A stretch of DNA of 64,000 bases from an uncultured Coriobacteriaceae bacterium (GCA_902766835.1 CACXFC010000242.1:7132-71131), one strand, 5' to 3'; positions 1 to 16,093 are shown, counted from the first letter of the stretch. Numbers and translations: made by a program. The notes: generated from the letters alone by a model not told the origin.

Positions 1-347
1 GGAGGCTGCTGGGAGCTCGTGCCCTTGTAACCCACCTGCTTGCCATTGGTTGTCCAGGTGAGGGTGCCATCGCCGTTGACCTTAAAGCTCTGGTCCTCGT
101 CGGTGGCGCTTATGCCGGTGAGGTTCGAGCGGTCGTCAATGCGGTCTGCCTTGTCATCGTTGGAAAGCAGGTCCTCGACGGTGACGGACGAGACGGCGCC
201 CTCCGCATTGGTCTGCACGTGAACGGTCTCAGACTTCATGACCTTCGACGCTGCGTAGGCGAAGGTGGGGGAGAGGGGCGAGGTGGCAAGGGCGACGGCC
301 ACTAAAACGCCGCCTATCCTGCACCAGCTTGGACGAGTGTTGCGCAT
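1..347 (-). CDS. secreted protein, N-terminal part (partial, runs off window start)
   Basis: Reverse-strand ATG at 345-347 opens MRNTRPSWCRIGGVLVAVALATSPLSPTFAYAAS..., a signal-peptide-like N-terminus. The frame stays open to position 1. It is absent from the ORF track because no stop lies inside the window. Confidence 0.55.
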   Translation of the reverse strand, partial: MRNTRPSWCRIGGVLVAVALATSPLSPTFAYAASKVMKSETVHVQTNAEGAVSSVTVEDLLSNDDKADRIDDRSNLTGISATDEDQSFKVNGDGTLTWTTNGKQVGYKGTSSQQP

Positions 348-535
348 CTGTGCTCCTAACGCGTGCTTTCGGCAAAAAAGTTTACCACTTATAACACTTG
401 TTAAGTTGCACGGGGTAAATATACACGCGACTTTATGAGCGCCCTGTGCCCACTCTCCGATGCGGTCCCAATTATGTCGGTCCAACGTGTCATGATTGCG
501 TAAGCACAACCATTCGCAACGGGAGCAGAGCTACT

Positions 536-1129
536 ATGCAGTCAACCTTCTTCGCCATCGTCTCGCGCATGAAGCACATCGAGCGCTGGGCGCTCATGCG
601 CAGCACCCGCCCCGAAAACCTCAGCGAGCACTCGCTCGAGGTGGCCATGATCGCCCATGCGCTGGCAACCATTGGCAACGTTCGCTATGGGAAGCAGCTC
701 GACGCAAGCCGGGCGGCGCTCATCGGGCTCTATCATGATGCGTCTGAGATCATCACGGGGGACATGCCCACGCCGGTCAAGTACCAGAACAGCCGCATCC
801 GTGACGCATACAAGGAAGTTGAGCACGAGGCGGAGCGCACGCTTCTCTCTACGCTCCCCGACGACCTGCGCCCCACCTACGAGGAGCTGTTCTCCCAAGA
901 TGGGTCGAAGGGGGATGCTTACCTCTGGCGTCTGGTGAAGGCGGCCGACAAGCTAAGCGCGCTGATCAAGTGCGTGGACGAGGCACAGGCGGGCAACGCC
1001 GAGTTCAAGACGGCCGAGGCCTCTACTCGCAAGCGGGTGGAGGAGCTGGCCGAGGAGCTGCCCGAGGTGAGCGACTTCCTGCAGGAGTTCTTGCCACCGT
1101 ATGGAAGTACGCTCGACGAGCTGTTGTAA
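536..1129 (+). CDS. yfbR: HD-domain 5'-deoxynucleotidase (YfbR family)
   Basis: Internal ATG at 536 follows GGGAGCAGAG. MQSTFFAIVSRMKHIERWALMRSTRPENLSEHSLEVAMIAHALA...LYHDASEIITGDMPTPVKY closely parallels E. coli YfbR. Confidence 0.88.
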   Translation: MQSTFFAIVSRMKHIERWALMRSTRPENLSEHSLEVAMIAHALATIGNVRYGKQLDASRAALIGLYHDASEIITGDMPTPVKYQNSRIRDAYKEVEHEAERTLLSTLPDDLRPTYEELFSQDGSKGDAYLWRLVKAADKLSALIKCVDEAQAGNAEFKTAEASTRKRVEELAEELPEVSDFLQEFLPPYGSTLDELL

Positions 1130-1184
1130 CCTATCTGAGTGGTTTACGCGTGGCCGCACGGCCGCATAAGGAAAGGAAGTCACC

Positions 1185-3017
1185 ATGGATCTTGATATTC
1201 GCCGCGTCATCAAAAGCGTGCCCAAGGACCATGGTCCGGAAGATCTGAAGCCGCTGTGGACTCCTTGGGGCGAGACGATGGGCGAGGTCGCCTACACGAG
1301 CCATCCGCGCCCCCTGCTGGCGCGCGACACCTGGCAGACGCTCGATGGCTGGTGGGAGTGTGCGTTCGAGCCCTGCGCACAGGCGGCGCGGGCATGGCGC
1401 GACGCCGAGCCCCCCGCCGCCTTTACCCAGCGCATTCGCGTGCCGTTCTCGCCTGAGGCAGCGCTCTCCGGCGTGGGGCGCCAGCTGCAGCCCAACGAGC
1501 TTTTGTGGTATCGCCGCACCTTCCAGATGCCCGAGCTGCCCAGCCGTGGTGCATGTGTGCTGCACTTCGATGGCGTGGACTTTGCCTGCGCCGTGTATGT
1601 CAACGGCAGCAAGGTCGCCGAGCACGAGGGTGCCTACCTTCCCTTTGAGGCCGACATCACCCACCTGCTGGTTGAGGGCGACAACACGCTGATGCTTTGC
1701 GTGTACGACCCAAGCGAGACGGGCACGCAGCTGCGCGGCAAGCAGCGCCTCAAGCGCGGCGGCATGTGGTATACCGCGCAATCGGGCATCTGGCAGTCGG
1801 TGTGGCTCGAGCTCATGCCCCGAACGCATGTGGAGGAGCTGCTGCTGGAGCCCGATGTGACAACGGGCGAGCTGATCGTGTCGGTGCGGGCAAACGGCAT
1901 TGCCATGCTGAGCGTCGACGTGCTTTCCGGCGGGGAAGTGGTGGCCTCGGGCATCCAGTCGCGCCGCGTGGGCGGGCGCATGACCCTCTCGCTTTCCGTG
2001 CCAGACTATCACCTGTGGACCCCCGACGATCCCGCGCTGTACGACGTGGTAGCTACCTACGGCGACGATGTGGTGCGCAGTTACGTGGCATTTCGCACGG
2101 TGGGCCTCGAGGCCGACGAGCAGGGTGTCCTGCGGTTCTGCCTCAATGGCCAGCCCCTGTTCCTGCGCGGTCTGCTCGACCAAGGCTATTGGCCCGACGG
2201 CCTTCTTACGCCCCCTTCGCAGGAGGCAATGGCATTCGACCTGCGTGCCGTGCGCCGGGCCGGCTTCAACATGGTGCGCAAGCACATAAAGGTGGAGTCC
2301 GAGCGCTTCTATGCGCTCTGCGACCAGATGGGCGTGTTGGTGATGCAGGACATGCCTAGCGGAGGCGACCTGCCCTCCGACCGCTGGGCGCGCGACCTCC
2401 CCACGCTGTGGCGCAGGTCTTGGCATGCGCAGCGCGACGACACCGCCAAGGGTCGCGAGCGTCTTGGTGCCGCCGACGAGGCCTACCGTGACGAGTGGCT
2501 GCGGACCTGCGAGGACGTGGTCCAGCGGCTGTCCGCCCATCCCTGCATTGTCAGCTGGGTGCTCTTCAACGAGTCGTGGGGCCAGTTCGACTCGGCAAAG
2601 GCCACGCAGTTGGTCTGGGACCTCGATGCAACCAGGCCCGTGGTCTCTACCAGCGGCTGGTACGACCAGGGCTGCGGCGACTTCCATGCCGTGCACAACT
2701 ACTTCCGCGGCATGCACATGTTCGACGACCCCTTCGCCCCCACGGGCAAGCGTGGCGTTCGTGCGCAGATATACGGCGAGTTTGGCGGGCTTACCTGGAC
2801 GGTGCCCGAACACGCCTCGCTCGACCACTCGTATGGGTATGCCGAGTTCGAGACCTTCGGACAGTGGAAGGCAGCCCTGCACGAGCTGATTGCCAGCGTC
2901 GATGCGCTTGAGGCACAAGGGCTTTCCGGTTTCGTGTACACGCAGCTCACCGACGTGGAGGAAGAGACCAACGGCCTGCTCACCTACGACCGGCGCGTGG
3001 ACAAGCTAGAGGCATAG
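1185..3017 (+). CDS. glycoside hydrolase family 2 protein
   Basis: 610-aa ORF with SD AAGGAAAGGAAG. GH2-like blocks are present: NMVRKHIKVE, VMQDMP, WVLFNESWG (NE acid/base). No signal peptide. Confidence 0.75.
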   Translation: MDLDIRRVIKSVPKDHGPEDLKPLWTPWGETMGEVAYTSHPRPLLARDTWQTLDGWWECAFEPCAQAARAWRDAEPPAAFTQRIRVPFSPEAALSGVGRQLQPNELLWYRRTFQMPELPSRGACVLHFDGVDFACAVYVNGSKVAEHEGAYLPFEADITHLLVEGDNTLMLCVYDPSETGTQLRGKQRLKRGGMWYTAQSGIWQSVWLELMPRTHVEELLLEPDVTTGELIVSVRANGIAMLSVDVLSGGEVVASGIQSRRVGGRMTLSLSVPDYHLWTPDDPALYDVVATYGDDVVRSYVAFRTVGLEADEQGVLRFCLNGQPLFLRGLLDQGYWPDGLLTPPSQEAMAFDLRAVRRAGFNMVRKHIKVESERFYALCDQMGVLVMQDMPSGGDLPSDRWARDLPTLWRRSWHAQRDDTAKGRERLGAADEAYRDEWLRTCEDVVQRLSAHPCIVSWVLFNESWGQFDSAKATQLVWDLDATRPVVSTSGWYDQGCGDFHAVHNYFRGMHMFDDPFAPTGKRGVRAQIYGEFGGLTWTVPEHASLDHSYGYAEFETFGQWKAALHELIASVDALEAQGLSGFVYTQLTDVEEETNGLLTYDRRVDKLEA

Positions 3018-3155
3018 GGCAGCAGAGCGGTGTGCCCTCGTGCGCGCTGACTCATCTGCAGTTTCAAGCTGTGTCCCCTACATGCCCTGCTGTGGGAGCA
3101 GCTTGGCATCCATTACACTGTTGATGAATAAGGGTTAGGCTGAGAAGGAGCTTCA

Positions 3156-3175
3156 ATGGCAGAGTTCGTGTACCA
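3156..3175 (+). repeat. attL core (copy of ettA codons 1-7)
   Basis: Identical to 10331-10350. It is preceded by a strong SD, GAGAAGGAG (3142-3150), and now opens only a 15-codon ORF ending at TAG 3201-3203. Confidence 0.85.
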
Positions 3176-3247
3176 TTTACCGCTTCTAGAAAACAGCTGG
3201 TAGTAGGCTTAAAATGTTTTAATCGTAACAAACTACCAGATAAACTT

Positions 3248-3267
3248 ATGGCACAATCTATGGCACA
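3248..3267 (+). repeat. tandem ATGGCACA boxes (candidate integrase arm-type sites, left arm)
   Basis: ATGGCACAATCTATGGCACA. The same two-box arrangement occurs at 10283-10303 in the same orientation. The box also resembles the core start TATGGCAGAG. Confidence 0.5.
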
Positions 3268-3288
3268 AAAGAGAGCCGTAGGGGTGTG

Positions 3289-4449
3289 ATGGAAGTGTTC
3301 TACACAGGTGCAAGTTTGAAGCAAATGCACGATCGGAAGGGCAAGCCGTGGCGCGGAACCTTGCAGTACAAGGATCCCGAAACGCTCAGGTGGAGACAGA
3401 TCACCAAAGTCTTTCCTGATTGCAAGTACAAGAGCGAAGCCAAAAGGGCTTTGGCTGACTGGCAAGCCGAAATGGAAGAAAAGGCAGCTCTTAGAGACAC
3501 GGGAAGAACAGTCGAGACAGTCATTCGCGGATATCTGTCGAACCAAAGGAGCCTGAACAGGATCAGCGTAGTAACCTACCAGAACTCTTTGCGGCTAGCT
3601 GAGACGATCATCTTTCCTAGGATCGGTAAGAAGATCTTTATCGATCTGACGAAGCTAGAAGTCCAGAAGTTCGTGAACGATCTATCGAAGAAGGGCTACA
3701 AGCCTAGTTCTGTACGCACAATCTTTGCCATAGTTTCAAAGACTTACAAGGACTCATTTAGGCGTGACGAAGTTCTGAAGGATCCAACGAAGGGTGTGGA
3801 GCTACCAAGAAATCTCAAGGGACAGATTAACTATCTTGGAGCTGAAGGAAGGCGCAAATTCCTTGCACTAATGACTGGATCGAGCATCTTCTACCTACCG
3901 ACTATGATCGCCTATTACAGCGGCATGAGAGCGGGTGAGATCTGCGCTTTGCAATGGAAGGATATCAACCTTGCAATTGGCACGATCAATATTACAAAGA
4001 CGGCGAAAGACTACCGCACGGACTCAGGCAGGCATGAGGTGGAGATCTCTAACCCGAAGACTCCCAAGAGCGTAAGAACTATCCCAATAATCGATGAACT
4101 GGGCAAGATTCTTAAGGACGCGGCGAAAGATGCGAAGCCAAAGCCTACAGACTACGTGATCGAGTGGAGAAACCCTAGGCTCTTGTGCTCAAGCTTTCAG
4201 AAGTGGGCTACAAGAAACGAGGTAGCAGGAGAAGCGGGTAAGCCAATCACAATGCATGGTCTGAGACACACTTTTGCAACCTTGGGTGTGCAAAGCGGCA
4301 TGGATATCAAGAGCCTTTCATCCATCCTTGGGCACAGCAGCACGGCAATGACTCTAGACACGTACGCAAGCGACGATGAGCAAGCAAAGCGTTTTGCGAT
4401 GAACAACCTATCTAGGTTCTTTCAGAACGAGAGTGAGAATGATCTTTGA
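3289..4449 (+). CDS. tyrosine-type site-specific integrase
   Basis: Catalytic signature blocks MRAGEICALQWKDI (Arg), HGLRHTFATL (H-x-x-R) and LGHSSTAMTLDTYAS (His..Tyr). The N-terminal SAM-like region has VVTYQNSLRL. ATG at 3289 (GTG at 3286 is also possible). Confidence 0.9.
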   Translation: MEVFYTGASLKQMHDRKGKPWRGTLQYKDPETLRWRQITKVFPDCKYKSEAKRALADWQAEMEEKAALRDTGRTVETVIRGYLSNQRSLNRISVVTYQNSLRLAETIIFPRIGKKIFIDLTKLEVQKFVNDLSKKGYKPSSVRTIFAIVSKTYKDSFRRDEVLKDPTKGVELPRNLKGQINYLGAEGRRKFLALMTGSSIFYLPTMIAYYSGMRAGEICALQWKDINLAIGTINITKTAKDYRTDSGRHEVEISNPKTPKSVRTIPIIDELGKILKDAAKDAKPKPTDYVIEWRNPRLLCSSFQKWATRNEVAGEAGKPITMHGLRHTFATLGVQSGMDIKSLSSILGHSSTAMTLDTYASDDEQAKRFAMNNLSRFFQNESENDL

Positions 4450-5042
4450 TGGACTATCTAGAGTGGATGAAACTACAAGAGAGCATGATCAGCTATGCGG
4501 AACAGTTGCGTGAGAAGATCAGCTTTATCGACCCTGAAGGAAGGCGCAAGCTGGATCCGTACTACTTCCTTTCTGGTGAGGTTGCCGCCTACAAGCTTCT
4601 AAGCTCTTGGATCAACTCCATGAGAAGGGGAAACGACGTTGTAGATGAGAGGGTAGGAGATCTAGTAGACCTGATCAGGAAGTTGGTCGAAGAGGATTAC
4701 GAAGACTATCAGATCTACGAAGCGGAAATAAGCATGCCACTTTGGTATGAGCTTATGAAGGGCTTCAGTGGTGATGCATTATCTAACTTCAATTCAGAGA
4801 TCCTAGTGCTTGCAAGTATTGCGGAAGTGAGATCTGGAATCTCGCCTGAGAACACGATTATTTGCACAATGACCGACGATGAGCTAACAGACGCAAATCT
4901 TGTTTCCTATGCGTATAGCCTAGTTCATGACTACCTGTTAGGATTGTCGAGGGAAGATTTAGAGTCGTTCGCACAAAAGGGCTTTGGCCTGAATGCGGAA
5001 AAAGGCGAACTCTACAAGCTTCACTTCAACTTATTCCAATAG
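4449..5042 (+). CDS. hypothetical protein (element-encoded, helical, acidic)
   Basis: ATG at 4449 overlaps the integrase TGA (TGATG coupling). 197 aa with no motif I recognise. Confidence 0.6.
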   Translation: MDYLEWMKLQESMISYAEQLREKISFIDPEGRRKLDPYYFLSGEVAAYKLLSSWINSMRRGNDVVDERVGDLVDLIRKLVEEDYEDYQIYEAEISMPLWYELMKGFSGDALSNFNSEILVLASIAEVRSGISPENTIICTMTDDELTDANLVSYAYSLVHDYLLGLSREDLESFAQKGFGLNAEKGELYKLHFNLFQ

Positions 5043-5055
5043 AAGAGAAAGGGCT

Positions 5056-5400
5056 ATGGGAATGAATAAGAGCGAAGCACAGGCTAAGCTAAGGGAACTT
5101 GCACGTGAGATTGGTGATTTCGACTTGTATGATGCAGCACAGGACACAGATCTTGCCTTCAGTCTTCTAGAAAAGAAGTTTGAAGATGCGGCAACACCTA
5201 TTGTCGAGATTTCGGGCAAGCAACTCACAAACAAGAGTTGCTTTAAGAAGAATGCCGACAGAAGAAAGTTCCTTCAGAGGGTGATTCGCAAAGAGACCAA
5301 TGATGAGTTCAAGGTCTTGTATGAACAGGAACTAGAGCTAATTGAGACTTATGCGTTTCTTGCTTTGGAGTATCTGTTTGGTGAGATTGCCACAAAGTAG
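5056..5400 (+). CDS. hypothetical protein (element-encoded)
   Basis: ATG at 5056 follows AGAAGAGAAAGGG. 114 aa, MGMNKSEAQAKLRELAREIG..., no recognisable motif. Confidence 0.55.
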   Translation: MGMNKSEAQAKLRELAREIGDFDLYDAAQDTDLAFSLLEKKFEDAATPIVEISGKQLTNKSCFKKNADRRKFLQRVIRKETNDEFKVLYEQELELIETYAFLALEYLFGEIATK

Positions 5401-5465
5401 CCTTTATCAGGTCTTTACCGTTGGATGGTCGAGTTGCCGTCTAATGGAAATAGCACCTCTTTTCA

Positions 5466-5474
5466 TGCTACAAT
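5466..5474 (+). promoter_or_regulatory. extended -10-like box TGCTACAAT
   Basis: TGnTAcAAT lies about 8 nt upstream of the first base of the long stem at 5482. No convincing -35. Confidence 0.3.
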
Positions 5475-5481
5475 CCACATA

Positions 5482-5617
5482 ACCACAACCGCGGGAACTT
5501 GTCTGTAAAGGCAAGTGTTCGCATCTTTGACAATCCAGCTAGCTACCACCTTGGAGGGCACTCCTGCCTTTCGGGTGAATGCTAGCTGTTAAAGCTGCGA
5601 ACGCTCGCGGTTGTGGT
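5482..5617 (+). ncRNA. candidate structured RNA / 5' leader (multi-stem, ~136 nt)
   Basis: A perfect 12-bp closing stem pairs ACCACAACCGCG (5482-5493) with CGCGGTTGTGGT (5606-5617). Inner pairings: GTTCGC (5517-5522) with GCGAAC (5598-5603), and CAGCTAGC (5536-5543) with GCTAGCTG (5581-5588). Local hairpins at 5494-5516 and GGAG/CTCC at 5553-5564. No long ORF in the interval. Confidence 0.45.
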
Positions 5618-5696
5618 GACTGTGGTTGGAGTGTCCTCCAAAATGGTCTCGCACCCCTTCCATGGTGAATGTCGGAGTTCCTTGGAAGGAGTCGCT

Positions 5697-5786
5697 ATGA
5701 GTGGTTCTAACAACAGCGGTTGCAGCCTCGTAATTCTGGTCGCGCTGGGGGTCTTTTTGGGCCTCGTGCTCTTTGCTGTGGGATAA
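5697..5786 (+). CDS. 29-aa hydrophobic peptide (type I toxin-like or leader peptide)
   Basis: ATG at 5697 follows GGAAGGAG. Sequence MSGSNNSGCSLVILVALGVFLGLVLFAVG, then TAA at 5784-5786. The SD GGAAGG (5684-5689) can pair with CCTTCC (5656-5661). It is below the ORF-track size cutoff. Confidence 0.4.
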   Translation: MSGSNNSGCSLVILVALGVFLGLVLFAVG

Positions 5787-5789
5787 CGC

Positions 5790-6176
5790 ATGACAAAGGG
5801 CAGGGAAGGCTATGAAATACTATTAGACGCAACCATACTACTGGTGTATCTAATAAACAAGAATAGCGACATTCTGTATGGAATCCTTCCCCGCCCGTTC
5901 ATGCGTAACCATTTCAATGATCTGTTGGCAGGCTGCTTGTTTCCTTCATATGTCAACATCGTGCTAAGGACTGCCAGATTTGATTATCAGATAGACAGTC
6001 TACTTAGTGTCCTGATCACAGAAATGGTATGCAGCTTGTTCTGGGAAGTACTTGCGCCGCTGTATCTAGCTAGAAGTACGTGTGATCCTATAGATGTTAT
6101 CTGCTACATATTAGGTGGAATGTTGTATCTCATGTTCATCCTTATTGTTTCAAATAGAAGGGATTGCCAACAATGA
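5790..6176 (+). CDS. small integral membrane protein
   Basis: 128 aa with 3-4 hydrophobic segments (ILLVYLI, LLAGCLFPSYV, LITEMVCSLFWEVLAPL, ICYILGGMLYLMFILIV). Starts 3 nt after the peptide stop. Confidence 0.6.
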   Translation: MTKGREGYEILLDATILLVYLINKNSDILYGILPRPFMRNHFNDLLAGCLFPSYVNIVLRTARFDYQIDSLLSVLITEMVCSLFWEVLAPLYLARSTCDPIDVICYILGGMLYLMFILIVSNRRDCQQ

Positions 6177-6394
6177 CAGACAACGATAACAAGAGCGAGA
6201 ATAGTATCGGCATGTACATTGCTCTGCTTATCATTTTTCTTCTGATTGGCTTTATCAGCAACAGCTGCAACGCACGCTCAAAGCAACGATCCTATACACC
6301 CATGACTGATGATGAGAGGGTCGAGTTCTTCAACAACATATCTGACCCCAGCACACCAGAAGGCAAATGGTACGAGGAAACGTATGGGGACTGA
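6173..6394 (+). CDS. small single-pass membrane protein
   Basis: ATGA start/stop overlap with the preceding ORF. MTDNDNKSENSIGMYIALLIIFLLIGFISNS... has one TM segment. Confidence 0.5.
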   Translation: MTDNDNKSENSIGMYIALLIIFLLIGFISNSCNARSKQRSYTPMTDDERVEFFNNISDPSTPEGKWYEETYGD

Positions 6395-6416
6395 GTCTCT
6401 GAACTTTGGAGAACGG

Positions 6417-6441
6417 CTGGATGCCTACGCAGGGCATCCAG
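6417..6441. terminator. hairpin between convergent genes
   Basis: CTGGATGCC-tacgcag-GGCATCCAG sits between the stop at 6394 (+) and the stop at 6451 (-). Confidence 0.5.
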
Positions 6442-6450
6442 CTCGCCCAC

Positions 6451-7029
6451 CTATTCACGGACAATCCCACGCTCTTTCGCGTACTTGTAGAAGACCGCGC
6501 GGCTGATCCCAACGATCGAGCAGATATCGTTAACGCTCTTGTCGGTGTTCTGGTAGAGATCGAAGGCGGTTGCGAGCTTGTCTTCGCTGACCTTTGACCT
6601 ACCGCCACAACGCCCGTCCTTCTCGCGCTTGATTCTCTGGCCCTCAGCCCTTCTCTCTGCCAAGATCTCGCGTTCGTACTGAGCAAAGCAAGCGGTGATC
6701 CCAAAGAAGAGACGGCCTGTAGCCGTGCGCGTGTCGCATTCGCCTTCTTTGAGGGAAACGAGAGCCACGCCCTTTTCGTTAAGGGTATTGCACAGGCTGA
6801 GAAGATCAGAGAGGTTGCGGGAAAGACGGCTGAAGGATTCGATATAGAGTTCGTCACCCTCAGAGAGAACAGAGAGAAGCTTCTTAAGTTCAGCGCGGTT
6901 TGTGTCTTTGCCGCTCTTCTTTTCGCTGTAGATGTTATCAGCGGGAATGCCCAACTGATCAGCCATCTTCAGTTGGCGTGCAAGGTTCTGGCCCTGAGAA
7001 GAGACGCGGGAATAGAAGAACTTGGACAT
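6451..7029 (-). CDS. serine recombinase (small resolvase/invertase type)
   Basis: MSKFFYSRVSSQGQNLARQ (catalytic Ser block), GDELYIESFSRLSRN, and a C-terminal HTH (SVNDICSIVGISRAVFYKYAKE). Internal ATG at 7029 chosen. Confidence 0.85.
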   Translation of the reverse strand: MSKFFYSRVSSQGQNLARQLKMADQLGIPADNIYSEKKSGKDTNRAELKKLLSVLSEGDELYIESFSRLSRNLSDLLSLCNTLNEKGVALVSLKEGECDTRTATGRLFFGITACFAQYEREILAERRAEGQRIKREKDGRCGGRSKVSEDKLATAFDLYQNTDKSVNDICSIVGISRAVFYKYAKERGIVRE

Positions 7030-7051
7030 TTGGAACCCCCAAAAGGTCGAT

Positions 7052-7191
7052 GTTTTGTCGTTCAACTGTATTTTAACGTAGACAAACAAAAAAGACAATA
7101 TAGACAGTCAAAAAAGACAATCTTTTTTCTCAGCCCTAGCGGTCTACCTTGGCTTAGCCCTTGCGTCTATTTTCGTAGAGCAAAAAAGACA
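7052..7191. promoter_or_regulatory. iterated motifs upstream of the recombinase (candidate res/operator region)
   Basis: AAAAAAGACA occurs as a direct repeat at 7088-7097, 7110-7119 and 7182-7191. TTTGTC (7054-7059) and GACAAA (7081-7086) form an inverted pair 21 bp apart. Near-palindrome AAAAAAGAcaaTCTTTTTT at 7110-7128. Confidence 0.4.
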
Positions 7192-7367
7192 GTCCTTGCA
7201 ACGCGTAACGACAAAAAGTTGGGTCAACTTGAATGATCCGAAAGCCACAAAAACCATTTCTCAGTGAAGCCAAGAGTAAAGAAAGATCAGGGCTGTAGGG
7301 GTCTGCGGCCCTGCTTTTCTTTTGGCTGTTTTGTTTGAAAAATCCTTTGAAGAAAGAAGGTCTGGAT

Positions 7368-7532
7368 ATGACGAAAGAAAAGAGAGTGGATCGATCAAAG
7401 TACTTTTCCCATTTGGGCGTAGAGATCCCGCGCGATCAGCACGACAGAATCAGGGCGATAGCCAAGAGTAAAGAGATCTCGATCAGCCAACTTGTGCGGC
7501 GTGCGCTGAATGAGTACTTGGCTAAGTGCTAA
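7368..7532 (+). CDS. ribbon-helix-helix (CopG-like) DNA-binding protein
   Basis: ATG at 7368 follows GAAGG. MTKEKRVDRSKYFSHLGVEIPRDQHDRIRAIAKSKEISISQLVRRALNEYLAKC has an RHH-like strand plus two helices. Confidence 0.6.
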   Translation: MTKEKRVDRSKYFSHLGVEIPRDQHDRIRAIAKSKEISISQLVRRALNEYLAKC

Positions 7533-7544
7533 GGGGTGATCACC

Positions 7545-9140
7545 TTGGCTTCAAAGTATTTGAGTGAATCGGATTTGGAGCTAAGCCAATGGGATCGAGA
7601 AAGAGAGATCGGATTGATAGCCGTCCCGTGCGGCCTAGGTAAGACGTATGCAAGCGTTCATTGGTTGTGAAGGATCCTAGGGATTGATCCTAAAGAAACG
7701 CTGTTGCTATCGCCTAGACGTGGGATCAGGAAACAGACGCTTGATAGCTACCCCGATCAGGTTGAGCGATTCACGGTCAGCGGATCAGCCTTTTCTAGCA
7801 AAGTTCAGATCGAGACGGTTCACAAGATCGGCTGTTGGTATCGCTTGGATTATGCCTACCCCAAACCTAGGCTTGTGATCATCGATGAATTTCACACCCT
7901 GTTTAGCGAAACCCACTTTGCTAGGGATCTGATCTATTTCTATCAGCAGCTTCTAGAGTGGATCGATGATCCTAGCGTTACCCTGATCGCCCTAACGGCC
8001 ACGACAACGCTACCCCTAGAGTTTGTGAACCAACAGCCCTTCAAGGGCTTTGAATGGCTCTATCAGAGCTTTCAAGGATTTAGGATCCGCAAGATATCTA
8101 GGGATCTTGATCCGCCTTACAAAGCGCAAGTTGTGCAGATCGAGAGCGGCAAGAGCCTAGAGACAGTTCTTAGACAATGCCCCGCAAGCCCCGATAACAA
8201 ACAGCTTGTTTTCGTGCGGGGAACAGCCGCAAAGCTTGTTAGCTTGGCTGAGAGTGAGGATCGATCTAGTTGGCTTTGCTCTGAAGAATCCAAGAGAGAA
8301 GTAAATGGTATCAAGGCGGCTGATCTGATGGATCAGGATCATCTTTCATCGATTCTTAGCGGCTACCTACCTGAGACAGTAGATCGGATCTATCTAACTA
8401 GCGCCTATCGTGAGGGGATTAACATCCACGATGAAGCGGTGCAGGAAGTAATTATCGAGGGTGCAAGTGATATCGAGCTGATTCAGGCGTTAGGGCGTGT
8501 GCGGCACCCGATCAAACGTCTGATCATCGTCATTGATGCCCGCAAGTTTCAGAACGGTGATCGAAAGATCAGAGAAGCGCTTGATCTGTTGGATAGCGGG
8601 GATCTAGAAGCTTATTACAAAAGGCAAGAGAAGCAGGATTTAGAAGGTTTTGAAGGCGAGAGAGTGCCCAACTTAGTCTTTAGGAACAAGTACACAAGGG
8701 AACTGAGGTTCAACTACCTAGCGCTTTGCTTTTGGTTATTTGACTACTACAGTTCAGCTTGTGCCACTCAGCAGGATTGGAAAGAGATCGAGCTATCAGG
8801 GCGATTGTTTCCTAGCAAGAGAGATTACTTCAGCAGGATCCTAGATCCCTACTCTGAAGGGCCTATCACCTATGACCTGATCAGCTTTGGAAAGCCTAGT
8901 GTAGATCGAGAGAATGCGGAAAAGCTAGAGCGCTTCGATTGGAAAGCCTGAAGCGGAAAAGAGTTGTGCGCAAAGAGCGATCTAGCCTTAGAGTTTGTAA
9001 GCGCTTTGGATTTGCATAACGCAAGCGACTATTCGCAAATGGCACTATCAGGGATCTATGACAACTTTCCTAAGTACTTTGTAAGAAAGCACAGAGTTAA
9101 GAAAAATGGAAAGAGAAAAGTAGTTTATGAATTGGCTTAG
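7545..9140 (+). pseudogene. SF2-type helicase reading frame interrupted by two in-frame TGA codons
   Basis: One frame is open from 7533 to TAG 9138-9140 except for TGA at 7668-7670 and 8949-8951. Walker A AVPCGLGKTYA precedes the first TGA. After it come motif II VIIDEFH, TATT and motif VI QALGRVRH. The 62 codons after the second TGA look coding (..YDNFPKYFVRKHRVKKNGKRKVVYELA). TTG start at 7545 follows AAGGGG. Confidence 0.7.
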
Positions 9141-9152
9141 CCTTTGCGGTGC

Positions 9153-9218
9153 AAAGGCCATTTTTCCAACCAATTTTCCTATGGGATATTAAGAAGTTTG
9201 GTTGGAAAAATGGCCTTT
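9153..9218. repeat. perfect 21-bp inverted repeat directly after the helicase frame
   Basis: AAAGGCCATTTTTCCAACCAA (9153-9173) pairs with TTGGTTGGAAAAATGGCCTTT (9198-9218) across a 24-nt loop. An AT-rich core follows at 9249-9284, flanked by the direct repeat AAGAAAAGA (9240-9248, 9285-9293). Confidence 0.7.
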
Positions 9219-9433
9219 CATTCGCAATATCTGATCCAAAAGAAAAGAGTTTTCAGGATAAAAAATATATTTTATAATTAAATTAAGAAAAGAAATCAGG
9301 CCTGAAATCAAAGATCTATTAAGGAAACTACGTTTCCCTTAGCTTCGCTTGCTTCGCAAGCTTGCTAATTCCTTTCCTTGTGTCGGTTGCTGCGCAACCG
9401 CCACGCCTTTTCAAGAGAAAAGAGGTTTTAGAA

Positions 9434-9622
9434 ATGAATGAAGAGAGATTCAAGATAACGATCTATGCAGATGGTAAGACGCTTGAAGTGCTCGATCTGA
9501 TCTCTGATTGATCGGATCTAGGGATCGAGGAAACGGCTTCCTTACTTTTGGCGCATTCGACCGAAAGAATCAGCGATCTTTACAGGGCAATTTCTGCAAC
9601 GGCCCTAGGAGGTGATCGCTAA
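9434..9622 (+). pseudogene. 62-codon ORF with an in-frame TGA
   Basis: ATG at 9434 follows AAAGAGG. MNEERFKITIYADGKTLEVLDLISD-TGA(9509-9511)-SDLGIEETASLLLAHSTERISDLYRAISATALGGDR. The TAA at 9620-9622 overlaps the ATG of the next gene (TAATG). Confidence 0.35.
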
Positions 9623-10020
9623 TGAATTTGGTTCAGAGCATGGAAAGCTGGTATCTCGCAAGGGATAAGCAGCATCATCTATTGGGCTTAGCCAAGAGCC
9701 AACTAGAAGCGGCCTATGCGGCTGGAATTAATGACGCTAGTTTGGGCAACTACCTAACCAACAAATACTCTTTCTTGGCTAGTGATCTTCGCAAGTTCAG
9801 CCACTTTGAAGGGATCACATCAGCAGAGATCGAAAGACGGTTTGCGGACGATATCGATCACATCCACCACAAGCTAGAGAGCGATATCAGAGCCAATCAG
9901 GCGGATCAGGCTACAGATGAAGCTACGTTCAATGACGTTGTGTTGTGGCCTTTGGTTAAGGAAGAGCTAGAACAGATCGCCCCGCCTGAAGTTGTGATAG
10001 CGCTCGATCTGAAGGCGTAG
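9622..10020 (+). CDS. hypothetical protein (element-encoded)
   Basis: 132-aa ORF with SD TAGGAGGTG. No recognisable motif. Confidence 0.6.
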   Translation: MNLVQSMESWYLARDKQHHLLGLAKSQLEAAYAAGINDASLGNYLTNKYSFLASDLRKFSHFEGITSAEIERRFADDIDHIHHKLESDIRANQADQATDEATFNDVVLWPLVKEELEQIAPPEVVIALDLKA

Positions 10021-10282
10021 GAGCCTTTCTAAGGGCCTAGAAGTGCGGGGATCGATATCTAAGACGTTGGGATAGAAGGCACCCCGAAAACAGGCTTAAA
10101 AGTGCTCTAGTGATATTTTTTGACAGCCTGAGAGGGTTTTTGGTGCATGCTTGATGCTATTGCCCCAAACGTACCCCGCCCCCTACAATTAAATGCATGG
10201 GTTCTGTTGTGGCTCACGTAACGACGAAAGTACAACAAATGATGGATAGATCCCAATCATCCCGAACAATCCGAAAAGATAT

Positions 10283-10303
10283 GTGGCACATATCTATGGC
10301 ACA
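10283..10303 (+). repeat. tandem (G/A)TGGCACA boxes (candidate integrase arm-type sites, right arm)
   Basis: GTGGCACATATCTATGGCACA lies 28 nt before attR, in the same orientation as 3248-3267. Confidence 0.5.
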
Positions 10304-10330
10304 CTAATAGAAAGTGCAGGTAAAAGGCTT

Positions 10331-12010
<1,680 letters not shown>

Positions 12011-12030
12011 CTGTTGCGCGCACTGCAGGA

Positions 12031-12086
12031 AATTAAGGGACACGCCCTTTTTGCCCCGCGTGGCAAAAAGGGCGTGTCCCCTAGTT
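12031..12086. repeat. GGGACACGCCC-family palindromic element
   Basis: AATTAAGGGACACGCCCTTTTTGCC-ccgcgt-GGCAAAAAGGGCGTGTCCCCTAGTT. It sits between convergent genes, and its right arm contains the stop codon at 12081-12083. Confidence 0.8.
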
Positions 12087-13115
12087 CCTAGGCGTGAGTA
12101 GCTCCTCGAGGGGTAGGGCGTCTGGGCCCCAATAGCCCAGCTCAAGACCGCGCTCGTAGATTCCATAGGCCTGCGCGTAGTAGCCATACGAGTTGAAGTG
12201 GGTCCAGTCGTACCTCAGCTTGGTGGAGATACAACCCTTGTCTGCCATCGCGCGGTCGGCCCTGTTCCGCTTCAGGCCACACACATCCAGCCCGTGCTCT
12301 ATGAGGTAGACGCGCATGTTGATGAAGTGGTCGCCAAACTCCTTGCGCAGCGCTGCCTCCCAGGCCGTCTCGCCAGGACCGGTACCCGGCGCGAATGGCT
12401 GCTGGCGCAGGTCTGCGATGGAGGTTCCCGGGTCGTCGGTGTCACCGATTATGAGATAGTCCTTGCAGCCGGAGTGCTCGATCATGGCCCGATACTGCTT
12501 GATGAGGCGCTTGTACCTGTTGGCCCAGCCCCCGTTGCTGCCAATCTCAAGAATGAGGATGTCGCCGGGGTGCTGCTCTCCCTCGTGTGCGATGCGCGGC
12601 AGGAAGACCTCAAGCGGGCTGCGCAGCTCCTCGATGGAGAGGCCTCCCTGCATCAGGGCGATCTCTTCGGAAGTCGCACCTGCGATGCCAAAGTTGAAGG
12701 TCTTGAGGCCGGTCAGCTCCTGCAGGATCTGGGGATAGGCCTTGAAGCTGATGTTGTTCTTCTGCCCGCCCTTCTTGATGGTGGCAAGACCTGCGCCCAC
12801 GCCTTCGGTCATGCTGTCGCCCCAGCAGACGATCTCGCGCGAATCGGTTTCGGATACGCCCTCGTAGCTCTGGTTGGCATGCTCGCGCAGGGCGTCGTAC
12901 AGGTCGTTGTAGCCACGCTCGCGCGGGAAGCGGTCGTAGCGCTCTACCTGGTTCCAGGGAAGGCCGGAGATGTCCACCTTTTCCTGGGCGGTCTCCCCTG
13001 AGGCTTTGTCGTCTGCAAAGCGAGCGACCGCAGGTACGGGAGCGCCAAGCGCAAGACAGAGCGTGGCGCCAAGCAGCGCCTGCGCCCACAGCAACCCTGA
13101 GCGTCTCACCGTCAT
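12081..13115 (-). CDS. secreted SGNH/GDSL-family hydrolase
   Basis: Signal-like N-terminus MTVRRSGLLWAQALLGATLCLALGAPVPA. GDS block VCWGDSMTEG and later ILEIGSNGG. Confidence 0.7.
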   Translation of the reverse strand: MTVRRSGLLWAQALLGATLCLALGAPVPAVARFADDKASGETAQEKVDISGLPWNQVERYDRFPRERGYNDLYDALREHANQSYEGVSETDSREIVCWGDSMTEGVGAGLATIKKGGQKNNISFKAYPQILQELTGLKTFNFGIAGATSEEIALMQGGLSIEELRSPLEVFLPRIAHEGEQHPGDILILEIGSNGGWANRYKRLIKQYRAMIEHSGCKDYLIIGDTDDPGTSIADLRQQPFAPGTGPGETAWEAALRKEFGDHFINMRVYLIEHGLDVCGLKRNRADRAMADKGCISTKLRYDWTHFNSYGYYAQAYGIYERGLELGYWGPDALPLEELLTPRN

Positions 13116-13156
13116 TTCTCCCTTGCAGATTTGTCGAGCCTTGCGCGTGCGATCGC

Positions 13157-13798
13157 CTATAGGGTATCGCTTTCCCAGATTTCGTTCTTGAACGACTCGA
13201 CCTGCTCGAGCCAGGCATCGGTATCGCCTTCGGCGTAGCTTGCGGCGCCTTCGGGGGTGATGTCGTATCCGTAGCCCTCGGCCAGGCCCTTAACGTGGGC
13301 CCGAATGGCCTCGTTCCAGTTGGGCCACTCCGTATCGCCCCAGCCCCATGCGTTGTAGGCGTGATAGCAAACCATGCCCGACTGGCTTTCCACGCGCGCG
13401 ATGGCGGGGGAGAGGCGCGGATCTACGTGGTTGTCATAGGCGGCCTCGGCAAAGGTCCTTCCATAGCCTGCCAGGGGGTATCCCTCGTTGAAGGCATCGA
13501 TGCGCTCCGCCCATGTCGTGACGAATTGCTCGCGGTCGACCTGCTCCTCGGCGGGAGCGGCCTCGGCCGCAGGCTGTTGCGCCTCGTCACCCTCGGCCGG
13601 AGCCTGCTCGCCGGTCTGTGCGGCCTGATCGGTCTGCTCAGCTTGCTCGGTCTGCTCGGCCTGCTGCTCAGTCTGCGGGGCCTGCGATTGGGGCAGGGGG
13701 TTTGTGCGGGCAAGCGCGAGACACAGCTGGGTAAAGGATGCCATGGCCACCACGGCGGCGATGACGGTGGCAACGAGGGTCTGGATGGTCTTGTTCAT
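13157..13798 (-). CDS. membrane-anchored protein with Q/E/A-rich linker
   Basis: Internal ATG at 13798 follows AAGAGG. MNKTIQTLVATVIAAVVAMASF (TM), a low-complexity QAEQTEQAEQTDQAAQ linker, then a C-terminal domain with ARVESQSGMVCYHAYNAWGWG. Possibly cell-wall related, which is a guess. Confidence 0.55.
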   Translation of the reverse strand: MNKTIQTLVATVIAAVVAMASFTQLCLALARTNPLPQSQAPQTEQQAEQTEQAEQTDQAAQTGEQAPAEGDEAQQPAAEAAPAEEQVDREQFVTTWAERIDAFNEGYPLAGYGRTFAEAAYDNHVDPRLSPAIARVESQSGMVCYHAYNAWGWGDTEWPNWNEAIRAHVKGLAEGYGYDITPEGAASYAEGDTDAWLEQVESFKNEIWESDTL

Positions 13799-14032
13799 GG
13801 ACGCTACCTCTTTAGGCGGGTTGGGCAGCCATGGTGCCTGCCTCCCTGCAGTCGGCCTTACTTCTAGGTGCGATTGTACGTGAGCGGCGCGCGTTAGGTT
13901 GCGAAACATGCCTGCTAATGGCATCAATGAGCCATTTGGGGCAGTATTTGACAGCGCGGCATGGCTCTGCACGCGCGCGCAACGTACCATAGAGGGCGTC
14001 AGGTACGCATGTCACAACCAAAGGGGTGGCCC

Positions 14033-14398
14033 ATGTCTGCACGCGTTCTGTTCCTTCAGTATCCCAAGTGTTCGACCTGCCGCAAGGCCAAGAAGTGGCT
14101 CGACGAGCACGGTGTTGCCTACACCGACCGCCATATCGTCGAGGAGAATCCCTCTGCCGAGGAGCTGGCCGCATGGCAAAAGCTCAGCGGGCTGCCCGCG
14201 CGGCGCTTCTTCAACACGAGCGGCAAGCTCTACCGCGAGCTGGGCATCAAGGACAAGCTTGCCGAGGGCATGGCAGATGACGAGATCTTCGCGCTTCTTG
14301 CGACGGAGGGCATGCTCGTGAAGCGCCCCCTTGTGGTTGGAGACTCCTTCGTGCTTGTGGGCTTCAAGGAAGCCGCATGGGAGGATGCTCTGCTCTAG
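14033..14398 (+). CDS. ArsC/Spx-family protein
   Basis: ATG at 14033 follows AAGGGGTGG. YPKCSTCRKAKKWLDEHGVAYTDRHI is the typical ArsC-family CxxC/K N-terminus. Confidence 0.75.
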   Translation: MSARVLFLQYPKCSTCRKAKKWLDEHGVAYTDRHIVEENPSAEELAAWQKLSGLPARRFFNTSGKLYRELGIKDKLAEGMADDEIFALLATEGMLVKRPLVVGDSFVLVGFKEAAWEDALL

Positions 14399-14533
14399 GC
14401 AGGCGGCGGTGTTGCCCAAGAAGGGCTCCCAGCACGCAACACCCATGCACCTCTCGGTGCATGGGCCGGCGCGCGGGGCCCATCTCGTATACTCGATACA
14501 AGGTGTTATTGCCACATAAACTAGGAGGGGCAC

Positions 14534-15934
14534 ATGAAGGACGGACTGAAGATCTGTACCATCGGCGGCGGCAGCAGCTACACGCCTGAGCTGATGAACG
14601 GTTTCATCTCGCGTTACGACCGCCTGCCGATCAAGGAGATTTGGCTGGTTGATGTCGAGCGCGGCCGCGAGAAGCTCGAGATCGTGGGTGCCATGGCACA
14701 GCGCATGTGGGATGCCTCGGGTCACGATGTCAAGGTTCACCTGACGCTCGACCGCCGCGAGGCCCTCAAGGATGCCGACTTCGTGACCACGCAGTTCCGC
14801 GTGGGCCTGCTCGAGGCGCGCATCAAGGACGAGCGCATCCCCTTCAGCCACGGCATGCTGGGCCAGGAGACCAACGGCGCCGGTGGCATGTTCAAGGCTC
14901 TGCGCACCATCCCCGTTATACTCGACATCGTCGAGGAGATGAAGGAGCTCTGCCCCAACGCATGGCTCATCAACTTCACCAACCCCAGCGGCATGGTCAC
15001 CGAGTCGGTCATTCGCTACGGCAAGTGGAACCGCTGCATTGGCCTGTGCAACGTGCCTATTGGCGCCATGCTCAACGAGCCCAAGCTCATTGACAAGACA
15101 CTCGACGACCTGGTGTATCGCTTTGCGGGCATCGACCACTTCCACTGGCATCGCGTCTTTGACGCCGCAACGGGCGCCGAGGTCACGATGGACATCATCG
15201 ATGCCATGCTTAACCCCAAGACCGAGGACGACGGCACGCCGGCCAACATCCACAACATCCCGTTCTACCGCGAGCAGCTCGATCACCTGGGCATGATTCC
15301 GTGCGGCTACCATCGCTACTACTACCTGCAGTCCGACATGCTCGACGATGGCCTGAAGGAGTTCAACGGCGAGGGCACGCGCGCCCAGCAGGTCAAGAAG
15401 GTCGAGGAGGAGCTGTTTGAGCTCTACAAGGATCCCAACCTGGCCGAGATGCCCGAGCAGCTCTCGAAGCGCGGCGGCGCCCACTACTCCGACGTGGCAA
15501 CCGAGTCCATTGCCGCCATCTACAACAATGCCAACGAGCACATCGTCTGCTCCACGCTCAACAATGGTGCCATCCCCGACCTGCCCGATGACGCCGTGGT
15601 GCAGGTTTCCAGCTATGTGGGCGGCGCCGGTGCCCAGCCGGTGGCCTTTGGCCCCATGACCACCTCTGCCCGCGGCTACCTGCAGCTCATGTGGAACATG
15701 CAGCGCCTGGTGGAAGAGGCTGCCGTGTACGGCGACTACGGCGCACTGCTGGAGGCCGTGGCGCTCAATCCGCAGACGCCCAGTGGTTCTGAGGCCAAGC
15801 AGTGCATCGACGAGCTGCTGGTTGCCCACGAGCAGTACCTGCCGCAGTTTGCCGAGAAGATCGCCGAGCTCAAGGCTGCCGGCGTGACGCCCATCGATCC
15901 CGTGGTGCAGGAGCTGTTGGCAAAGGGCCTGTAA
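14534..15934 (+). CDS. GH4 6-phospho-beta-glucosidase
   Basis: MKDGLKICTIGGGSSYTPELMNGF (NAD-binding GGGS), NAWLINFTNPSG, CNVPIG. Confidence 0.85.
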   Translation: MKDGLKICTIGGGSSYTPELMNGFISRYDRLPIKEIWLVDVERGREKLEIVGAMAQRMWDASGHDVKVHLTLDRREALKDADFVTTQFRVGLLEARIKDERIPFSHGMLGQETNGAGGMFKALRTIPVILDIVEEMKELCPNAWLINFTNPSGMVTESVIRYGKWNRCIGLCNVPIGAMLNEPKLIDKTLDDLVYRFAGIDHFHWHRVFDAATGAEVTMDIIDAMLNPKTEDDGTPANIHNIPFYREQLDHLGMIPCGYHRYYYLQSDMLDDGLKEFNGEGTRAQQVKKVEEELFELYKDPNLAEMPEQLSKRGGAHYSDVATESIAAIYNNANEHIVCSTLNNGAIPDLPDDAVVQVSSYVGGAGAQPVAFGPMTTSARGYLQLMWNMQRLVEEAAVYGDYGALLEAVALNPQTPSGSEAKQCIDELLVAHEQYLPQFAEKIAELKAAGVTPIDPVVQELLAKGL

Positions 15935-16093
15935 GCTGCGCATCCCTGAGGGGCAGTGAGAGGCGCACCCTTTCGGCCTGACTGTTCGTGGAGAACCTCG
16001 CTGAGGTGCAGTAGAGTATGTATGAACGAGGGCCCCGTGAGGCATAGCCTTGCGGGGCCCTTTCCTAGCGATTCAATAGGGAGGGGAGCGCAT

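Follow-up and report, generated by a model that had tools for sequence, protein, structure and literature searches.

A 64-kb stretch of DNA (the window) from an uncultured gut member of the Atopobiaceae (Coriobacteriia) carries ettA, the gene of the energy-dependent translational throttle, directly behind a small low-GC element that encodes a tyrosine integrase. The element is a precise insertion at the start of ettA, and it is polymorphic between strains. Its boundaries are marked by the 20-mer ATGGCAGAGTTCGTGTACCA, which occurs exactly twice in the window, both times on the + strand (3156–3175 and 10331–10350). No match to this 20-mer, with up to three mismatches allowed, was found in 100 dinucleotide-preserving shuffles. 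The two copies enclose 7,155 bp (3176–10330) of about 47% GC overall; between the repeats GC ranges from 0.38 to 0.54, against about 0.62–0.68 on either flank and ~62–65% for the host as a whole. The window contains no other low-GC island, and neither tRNA nor tmRNA genes are present anywhere in it.

The right copy of the repeat opens an intact gene for a 559-aa EttA. The protein scores 903 bits with NF008775 (cut-off 599) and 878 bits with TIGR03719 (cut-off 806.75); with the Uup model it reaches 450 bits (cut-off 900), and it is far below the cut-offs of other ABC-F families. The left copy lies behind the native Shine–Dalgarno (SD) sequence GAGAAGGAG (3142–3150) and opens only a short residual open reading frame (ORF). 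The features at the two boundaries are as follows.

1185–3017: GH2-family neighbour gene, adjoining the intergenic region on the attL side of the element
3018–3155, + strand: host intergenic region from the GH2-family gene to the native ettA start, equal to the 138-bp intergenic region of unoccupied conspecific sites
3156–3175, + strand: attL core, the first 20 nt of ettA, readable as 7-7-7 ATGGCAG/AGTTCGT/GTACCA(T)
3156–3203, + strand: residual 15-codon ORF MAEFVYHLPLLENSW with its stop codon (3201–3203), behind the native SD
10331–10350, + strand: attR core, the first 20 nt of the resident ettA
10331–12010, + strand: intact ettA (ABC-F; Pfam ABC_tran twice and ABC_tran_Xtn)

An earlier, first-pass annotation of this DNA had described a perfect 20-bp direct repeat at the ettA start, a left copy with a strong SD and a 15-codon ORF, a low-GC element in a high-GC context, and a tyrosine integrase beside attL. 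All four descriptions hold: the coordinates of both repeat copies, the left-hand ORF with its stop and the GC profile agree with it, and the integrase (3286/3295–4449) matches PF00589 with an E-value of 3e-23.

Occupied and unoccupied strains

Conspecific contigs were retrieved from independent gut metagenome assemblies by exact-sequence look-up of the GH2-family protein; the same kind of look-up with the 559-aa EttA returned no record. In seven of these contigs (L214, L217 and L219–L223) the element is precisely absent and a single copy of the 20-mer remains. The GH2-family gene is followed there by the 138-bp intergenic region and then by ettA, with the sequence ...GAGAAGGAGCTTCA ATGGCAGAGTTCGTGTACCA GATGTAC... 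or, with more of the ettA side written out, ...ggctgagaaggagcttca ATGGCAGAGTTCGTGTACCA gatgtacaagg.... The attB junction predicted for the strain of the window is ...GAAGGAGCTTCA ATGGCAGAGTTCGTGTACCA GATGTAC..., and the empty site that the first-pass annotation had predicted is found in all seven contigs exactly in the expected form. The closest comparison is provided by L214, which is 100% identical to window positions 1–3175 and 99.35% identical to 10331–16000, with 3176–10330 exactly missing. Such flank identity points to a recent gain or loss of the element. Three further contigs from different samples (L215, L216 and L218) are occupied, and they are 100% identical to the window over 11–13 kb including the element. 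Samples with the occupied strain include ERZ1039689, ERZ28614002 and ERZ27279993.

More distant Atopobiaceae also keep the GH2–ettA synteny, with short intergenic regions (85 bp in L028). Since neither the seven conspecifics nor the distant loci have the element between these genes, the 7 kb is an insertion and not ancestral DNA, and the possibility that it is ancestral and syntenic in all relatives is ruled out. In L028 itself, ettA shows an apparent gap of ~90 bp at about 4019–4030 relative to window 10478–10560, perhaps an in-frame deletion or an assembly error.

Anatomy of the attachment site

Two relatives in which the attL and attR cores are not identical allow the crossover to be placed. 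In L207 the cores differ at position 4 (attL ATGG..., attR ATGT...), and in L200 they differ at position 20. The crossover therefore falls within core positions 5–19. The L207 difference also means that the element contributes the beginning of the resident ettA; in that relative, EttA residue 2 becomes Ser. The exact crossover most likely falls in the central 7-bp overlap AGTTCGT, which has the imperfect inverted 7-mers ATGGCAG and GTACCAT on its two sides; the 21-bp core that includes both 7-mers is ATGGCAGAGTTCGTGTACCAG.

Outside the core, short direct repeats of arm type are present at both ends of the element.

3247–3255 and 3259–3267, + strand: left arm-type direct repeat pair, TATGGCACA twice
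10282–10290 and 10295–10303, + strand: right arm-type repeat pair, TGTGGCACA and TATGGCACA

All three exact copies of TATGGCACA in the window lie within ~100 bp of the att cores. In relatives the arm repeats are likewise 8–9 nt long and co-vary with the integrase (ATGGCACA, ATCACACA, CTGACACA and TTTGTGTCT). The paired repeats are putative integrase-binding sites on both sides of the core. A further motif, GCAGGTARA, is found ~15 nt ahead of the core in every small-element right end (window 10316–10324, GCAGGTAAA) and recurs ~20 nt past the core in the left ends of L207, L210, L200, L208 and L034. In the left ends of L034 (GTAGGTAGA) and of the window (GCTGGTAGT) the motif is degenerate. The residual ORFs at attL are of equal length in L034, L207, L208 and L200, and in L207, L208 and L200 the stop codon lies inside the left-end GCAGGTARA. 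The 15-codon length thus recurs in several relatives because the stop falls within the second copy of this motif.

Genomes of Bacteroidales, Hydrogenophaga, Dehalococcoidia, Lachnospiraceae and Treponema also contain the 20-mer ATGGCAGAGTTCGTGTACCA, there antisense to an unrelated gene. These off-target copies (L001, L003, L006, L014, L020, L023, L027 and L029) are always followed by CCAC or CGAC. When reverse-complemented they encode a VHELCH-like motif, which is probably conserved and binds metal, and their resemblance to the att site is coincidental.

Integrated, circular and phage relatives

Integrases related to that of the window number in the hundreds, and many are encoded on contigs of 6.5–8 kb; the small elements of the family measure 6.5–8.5 kb. 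Several are integrated at the same position as the element of the window. L034–L037 (integrase 80% identical) are bracketed by the first 20 nt of ettA, and L207 (80%) and L200 (68%) have inserted at these 20 nt too. Over the 10 bp of flank available at its contig end, L207 has the same attL flank as the window. Two more distant elements, L201 (56%) and L203 (51%), the latter in an Eggerthellaceae genome, are also integrated at the ettA start, with a repeat in L201 that reaches ~60 nt into the gene. Targeting of the ettA start is therefore common to the family and extends over two families of gut Coriobacteriia. P0061, with an integrase that is 43% identical, adjoins a different gene, and so the ettA specificity is a property of the clade at roughly 50% identity or above.

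Four contigs have the attP arrangement, in which the right end, the core and the left end are contiguous. L040 encodes an integrase 95% identical to that of the window and has the core ATGGCAGAGTTCATATACCA. The corresponding identities are 77% for L208 and 79% for L210, a contig of ~6.7 kb which is circular, as indicated by its 30-nt terminal direct overlap. The fourth contig, L033, contains a circular permutation of the L035 element, 100% identical to it in sequence. In this 32-kb metagenome scaffold the permuted L035-type element is joined to host hypA inside the resolvase gene (6340–6520), through either a chimeric assembly or an unrelated second insertion.

The same site is found in a temperate siphovirus of ~22.1 kb (L211–L213), assembled at 22,093–22,140 bp in several samples and encoding a large terminase (TerL), an SPP1-type portal, capsid and tail genes. 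Its integrase is 53% identical to that of the window and adjoins a homologue of p197, the second gene of the element. The phage attP (L211 9700–10020; also in L212 and L213) contains the ettA start as ATGGCAGAATTCATCTACCAGATGTA after an AGGAG SD of its own, and its core and integrase gene have the opposite relative orientation to that seen in the small elements.

The whole element had no blastn match among PLSDB plasmids and INPHARED phages, the 22-kb siphovirus genome had none in INPHARED, and a scan of IMG/VR for the 20-mer was also negative. The best integrase relatives in IMG/VR are at most 39% identical, and the element family is therefore not represented there.

The 5′ region of ettA and probable scars

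At the native site AAGGAG lies 6 nt from the ettA ATG, whereas the occupied site offers AAAGG at 3 nt or AGGT at 12 nt. Two features of the right end lie ahead of the resident gene.

10160–10189, + strand: promoter-like TTGCCC-N18-TACAAT facing ettA, a candidate with a 9/12 consensus match
10309–10330, + strand: element-borne block AGAAAGTGCAGGTAAAAGGCTT, including the GCAGGTAAA motif (10316–10324), the new 5′ untranslated region (UTR) and SD region of ettA

The central bases of the block, which reads GAAAGTGCAGGTAAAAGG in the AGAAAGTGCAGGTAAAAGGCTT region, are invariant in right ends with integrases 68–96% identical. The promoter-like site lies ~140 nt upstream and is also present in L040 and in the decayed element of L018. 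No terminator was predicted between attL and the integrase gene or between p132, the last gene of the element, and ettA. Given the lack of a predicted terminator and the orientation of the genes in the right half, which face ettA, read-through transcription into ettA is also possible. The distant relatives L201 and L203 and the siphovirus supply ordinary strong SDs ahead of the gene. An Rfam scan of 2800–10600 detected no riboswitch or leader family ahead of ettA and returned only sub-threshold microRNA matches on a hairpin described below.

Elements that enter the 5′ ends of genes are known to bring a replacement 5′ region. As read from the DNA, the present element supplies one to ettA and keeps the coding sequence. 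The first-pass annotation had described the DNA ahead of ettA as offering a weak SD and no obvious promoter. The SD is indeed poorer than the native one, but the upstream DNA is a conserved attP block with a candidate promoter rather than arbitrary sequence. As to its claim that ettA was split from its native SD and promoter, the SD does stay behind at attL; separation from the promoter can be presumed. Control of EttA expression by the element, also proposed in that annotation, is a putative effect.

An element-type block, GAAAGYGCAGGTARARGG, is found directly upstream of ettA at several sites that have no integrase. In L002 (1384–1600) it stands in a 177-bp intergenic region, and L022 (7118–7185) has it as well. 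L018 (3263–4916) retains ~220 bp of the element right end together with a low-GC (0.45) gene for an acyltransferase-like protein of 396 aa. In L034 (240–283) the block is present also on the host side of attL. Vestiges of arm repeats accompany the block at these loci, and all other Atopobiaceae ettA loci have canonical GGAG-type SDs. In these few genomes, the block is probably the scar of an earlier element that now serves as the ettA 5′ UTR. Scars are favoured over native sequence because the block belongs to the att architecture and is lacking in the unoccupied conspecifics. We also considered whether the right ~170 bp of the element might be native host DNA, given that GAAAGTGCAGGTARAAGG precedes ettA in L002, L018 and L022. 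This possibility was rejected, since the unoccupied conspecifics do not have the sequence, the attP contigs do, and the motif recurs in left ends.

Gene content

Between the att sites, the following genes and features were identified.

3295–4449, + strand: tyrosine integrase, taken from the GTG at 3295 that corresponds to the family consensus start MFYT; its ORF is open from 3286
4449–5042, + strand: p197, an all-alpha protein of 197 aa; its start overlaps the integrase stop codon
5056–5400, + strand: p114, conserved hypothetical protein, 80–83% identical in L040, L035, L207 and L210; no family match
5613–5786, 5790–6176 and 6164–6394, + strand: variable cargo slot with three small hydrophobic ORFs; no family match
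6451–7029, − strand: small serine recombinase (resolvase/invertase), probably starting at 7029 (MSKFFYSR) in an ORF open from 7098
7335–7532, + strand: ribbon-helix-helix protein of the CopG/ORF56 copy-control type (PF01402, E-value 6e-6)
7536–8951, + strand: candidate replication protein resembling SF2 helicases; one in-frame TGA (7668–7670)
9132–9239: imperfect inverted repeat (hairpin) with 50-nt arms, 76% complementary; candidate replication origin
9622–10020, + strand: p132, conserved hypothetical protein, the last gene before attR, 86–97% identical in L035, L207, L210 and L040

The integrase also matches PHROG 1 (E-value 1.5e-61), and its catalytic residues R215, K258, H324, R327, H350 and Y360 are invariant in 33 integrase relatives. 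Most relatives, among them the phage and those with a target other than ettA, also encode p197 next to their integrase; in L201, L041 and L042 no match to p197 was detected. Its AlphaFold2 (AF2) model is all-alpha with a predicted local distance difference test (pLDDT) score of 89. Neither its fold nor its sequence had a match in PDB, and the only fold match was an uncharacterised gut siphovirus protein in BFVD. As a conserved partner of the integrase, p197 is a candidate directionality or accessory factor. For p132 no family match was found, and its AF2 model (pLDDT 49) is unusable. The phage has a 132-aa ORF upstream of its terminase gene, which raised the possibility that p132 is a small terminase; there is no similarity between the two proteins, and this idea was dropped.

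The resolvase was identified by PF00239 (E-value 5e-34), PF02796 (HTH_7) and PHROG 125, and it is called with 192 aa in L215. In the helicase-like gene the TGA falls between Walker A (GLGKT) and the DEFH motif. Read through, the protein matches ResIII (E-value 1.2e-10) and DEAD (28.9 bits), and it has no sequence match in PDB. The attP-form relative L040 (~90% DNA identity) has the same TGA, in place of which the intact homologue in L206 has Pro; the codon may be read through, or the two copies may share a nonsense mutation. Folded as DNA, the hairpin has an energy of −28.5 kcal/mol (z = −6.3), and it lies where the element is richest in AT (GC 0.38 at 9001–9500).

Searches with Pfam, PHROGs and NCBIfam detected no virion structural or packaging genes (terminase, portal, capsid, tail) in the element; such genes are present only in the 22-kb relative L211. 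PADLOC returned no defence system for any element or cargo protein. No PHROG or Pfam match was obtained for p197, p114, p132, p58 or the cargo ORFs, with the proviso that divergent genes could escape detection.

Across the family, the integrase and the resolvase are constant, as is p197 except in L201, and the cargo and replication modules vary. The cargo slot holds lipoprotein-like genes in L035 and L040. In L208 it holds an N6/N4 DNA methyltransferase, encoded together with a 357-aa partner at 2588–4433. L203 encodes a DUF4145 protein (11904–12581), and in L201 a D5-type primase-helicase (12957–15116) replaces the SF2 helicase.

Proposed mode of integration and lifestyle

We consider it very probable that positions 3176–10330 together with one 20-bp core constitute a small, strain-variable, site-specific element, whose integrase exchanges the 5′ region of ettA on entry and which would exist as a plasmid-like circle outside the chromosome. 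In the proposed mechanism, the tyrosine integrase would recombine the attP core with the first 20 nt of ettA, leaving the EttA coding sequence unchanged and swapping everything upstream of it. The native SD, and any native promoter with it, would be stranded at attL, facing first the 15-codon ORF and, beyond it, the gene for the integrase. The resident ettA would take the right end of the element as its 5′ region, with the two arm repeats, the conserved block and the candidate promoter. Once excised, the element probably persists as a small plasmid-like circle, as suggested by its CopG/ORF56-like protein, the SF2 helicase-like candidate Rep and the AT-rich hairpin as a possible origin. Multimers of the circle would be resolved by the serine resolvase.

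Several observations weigh against this scenario. The first-pass annotation had named a circular attP junction as something to look for, and one exists in each of the relatives L040, L208, L210 and L033. For the exact element of the window (predicted junction ...GCAGGTAAAAGGCTT ATGGCAGAGTTCGTGTACCA TTTACCGCTTCTAG...) none was recovered, and the nearest comes from the relative with the 95% identical integrase. The in-frame TGA makes autonomous replication of the window copy doubtful. The ribbon-helix-helix protein barely reaches the cut-off of the ORF56 model NF041793 (50.2 bits against 50). No transfer functions (relaxase, Tra, packaging) were recognised in the element ORFs. Finally, the count of promoter-like sites of the kind found ahead of ettA is not above chance in shuffles.

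Some of the same observations could be taken to mean that the window copy is an immobile, defective relic and that its presence or absence reflects old events only. The helicase TGA and the missing attP of the exact sequence fit such an interpretation, as does the existence of decayed relatives such as L018, reduced to ~220 bp of the right end beside its acyltransferase-like gene. Yet the integrase is intact with all catalytic residues, the core repeats are identical at 20 of 20 positions and both arm-repeat pairs are preserved. Moreover, identity among the three occupied contigs is 100% across different samples, the flanks of the unoccupied L214 are 100% and 99.35% identical, and L040 was assembled as an attP-containing contig despite sharing the TGA. 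Taken together, these findings make a relic very unlikely. A somewhat better case, though still an improbable one, can be made for a phage satellite resembling a minimal phage-inducible chromosomal island (PICI), which would share its integrase type and ettA site with Coriobacteriia siphoviruses and be packaged by a helper instead of living as a plasmid-like episome. The siphovirus of ~22.1 kb, with its 53% identical integrase, its p197 homologue and ATGGCAGAATTCATCTACCAGATGTA in attP, is what such an origin would lead one to expect; the elements are small (6.5–8.5 kb), conjugation genes were not detected in them, and the sole fold match of p197 is to a gut siphovirus protein. On the other hand, the integrase and p197 are all that element and phage have in common, and in the phage the core faces the other way with respect to the integrase gene. 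Searches with PHROG, Pfam and NCBIfam gave no match to terS, capsid-size redirection, phage-interference or repressor genes in the element, which has no close match in IMG/VR or INPHARED and carries a plasmid-type CopG/resolvase set.

Integration might also act as a reversible switch of EttA, in the manner of active lysogeny or of SpyCIM1 at mutL, with an element promoter and a weaker SD driving ettA, the host ettA promoter driving the integrase, and excision restoring the original state. Both the dosage of EttA and the mobility of the element would then be tied to host physiology. The replacement of the native AAGGAG by a poorer SD would suit a switch, and so would the absence of predicted terminators from attL to the integrase and from p132 to ettA, the orientation of almost every element gene towards ettA, the polymorphic occupancy of the site in the population, and the retention of an element-type 5′ block ahead of ettA in the integrase-free L002, L018 and L022. 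However, the phage integrase is oriented the other way, so that coupling of the integrase to the ettA promoter is not a conserved feature. Strong SDs are brought in by L201, L203 and the phage, which resembles gene restoration and not down-regulation, and conservation of the block is at least partly explained by its role in the att site. We therefore regard a switch as unlikely. A broader proposal, to which we give slightly more weight but which remains tentative and rather doubtful, is that the first 20 nt of ettA are a dedicated landing pad in Coriobacteriia for an integrase clade carried by small plasmid-like or satellite elements and at least one temperate siphovirus. Each arrival would actively rewire a translation factor by exchanging its promoter, 5′ UTR and SD for an att-derived block, and would bring the integrase under control of the host ettA promoter; decay would leave a permanent foreign 5′ scar, as may be the case in L002, L018, L022 and on the host side of attL in L034. 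If so, EttA dosage in gut hosts would be set by the history of mobile elements at this site.

The occupied and unoccupied ettA sites make a tractable natural system: near-identical occupied and unoccupied strains are available in public metagenomes, together with assembled circular relatives, and the attP architecture (a 20-bp core, paired arm repeats and GCAGGTARA on both sides) can be read from sequence. The effect of the element 5′ region on translation-factor expression or host fitness becomes a question open to testing, and the 20–21-bp att site with its compact integrase may provide tools for Coriobacteriia.

Comparison with known systems

Comparable small elements of Actinomycetota are the actinomycete integrative and conjugative elements (AICEs) and integrating plasmids of the pSAM2, pMEA and pSE types, in which a replication module accompanies a tyrosine integrase and which occur both integrated and as circles. 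AICEs encode an FtsK/SpoIIIE-like transfer protein, and their usual target is the 3′ end of a tRNA gene. The present element likewise has a tyrosine integrase, together with putative replication genes, but differs in its target, the 5′ end of a protein-coding gene. In addition, no domain of an FtsK/SpoIIIE-like Tra protein, and none of the relaxase and oriT type that characterizes integrative and mobilizable elements, was found in any element ORF.

Insertions at or close to the 5′ end of a housekeeping gene that cut it from its promoter are known from SpyCIM1 at mutL, from other streptococcal phage-like chromosomal islands and from the comK phages of Listeria (active lysogeny), in which excision can act as a switch. 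Insertions of the SpyCIM1 and comK type silence the target gene; the element described here, unlike them, brings a replacement 5′ region and leaves ettA intact. PICIs and the related phage-inducible chromosomal minimalist islands (PICMIs) are small satellites with an integrase and a replication-type gene. The element resembles them in these respects and in having a related integrase and attachment site in a temperate phage, but packaging-hijack, repressor and interference genes were not recognised in it with PHROG and Pfam, and none of the genes by which prophages and PICIs are defined was detected in the searches with these families.

A non-exhaustive literature search found no paper describing ettA (yjjK) as an attachment site, in line with the first-pass annotation. 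The only mention was a TIGER-named island, '12.DUF756|ettA', of a soil consortium isolate, which is reported to excise after mitomycin C (2026 preprint, bioRxiv 10.64898/2026.09.08.750204). By its name, this is a 12-kb (defective) prophage in a DUF756/ettA intergenic region. The element family of gut Coriobacteriia and its ettA target thus appear to be undescribed and previously unnoticed.

The known precedent is that of the dusA-specific islands and prophages, whose tyrosine integrases form a clade specialized on the 5′ end of dusA (Farrugia et al. 2015, PMC4482086). These islands supply a new 5′ end and a putative promoter and leave the original 5′ end at the far boundary; they form circular intermediates, carry diverse cargo, and share the site between prophages and non-phage islands (PMC4482086). 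The ettA elements are similar in that an integrase clade uses the 5′ end of a conserved translation-related gene, a replacement 5′ region is provided while the original one stays at the far boundary, circular forms occur among relatives, cargo varies, and both phage and non-phage elements are involved. They differ in their target, which is ettA and not the 5′ end of dusA, dusB or dusC, so that the likeness to dusA islands is mechanistic only. They also differ in their hosts, Coriobacteriia and not Proteobacteria, in their much smaller size and plasmid-like gene set, and in a crossover within the first 20 nt that leaves the protein unchanged (only residue 2 is altered, in L207). With dusA as the precedent, ettA, encoding a conserved ABC-F translation factor, joins the short list of protein-coding genes with a 5′ end targeted by an integrase family. 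This site serves small non-phage elements as well as a phage, across two Coriobacteriia families of the gut. To specialists the finding should come as a mild surprise only: a 5′-end site-specific integrative element that restores the gene it enters is of a kind already known, and what is new is the target and the family.

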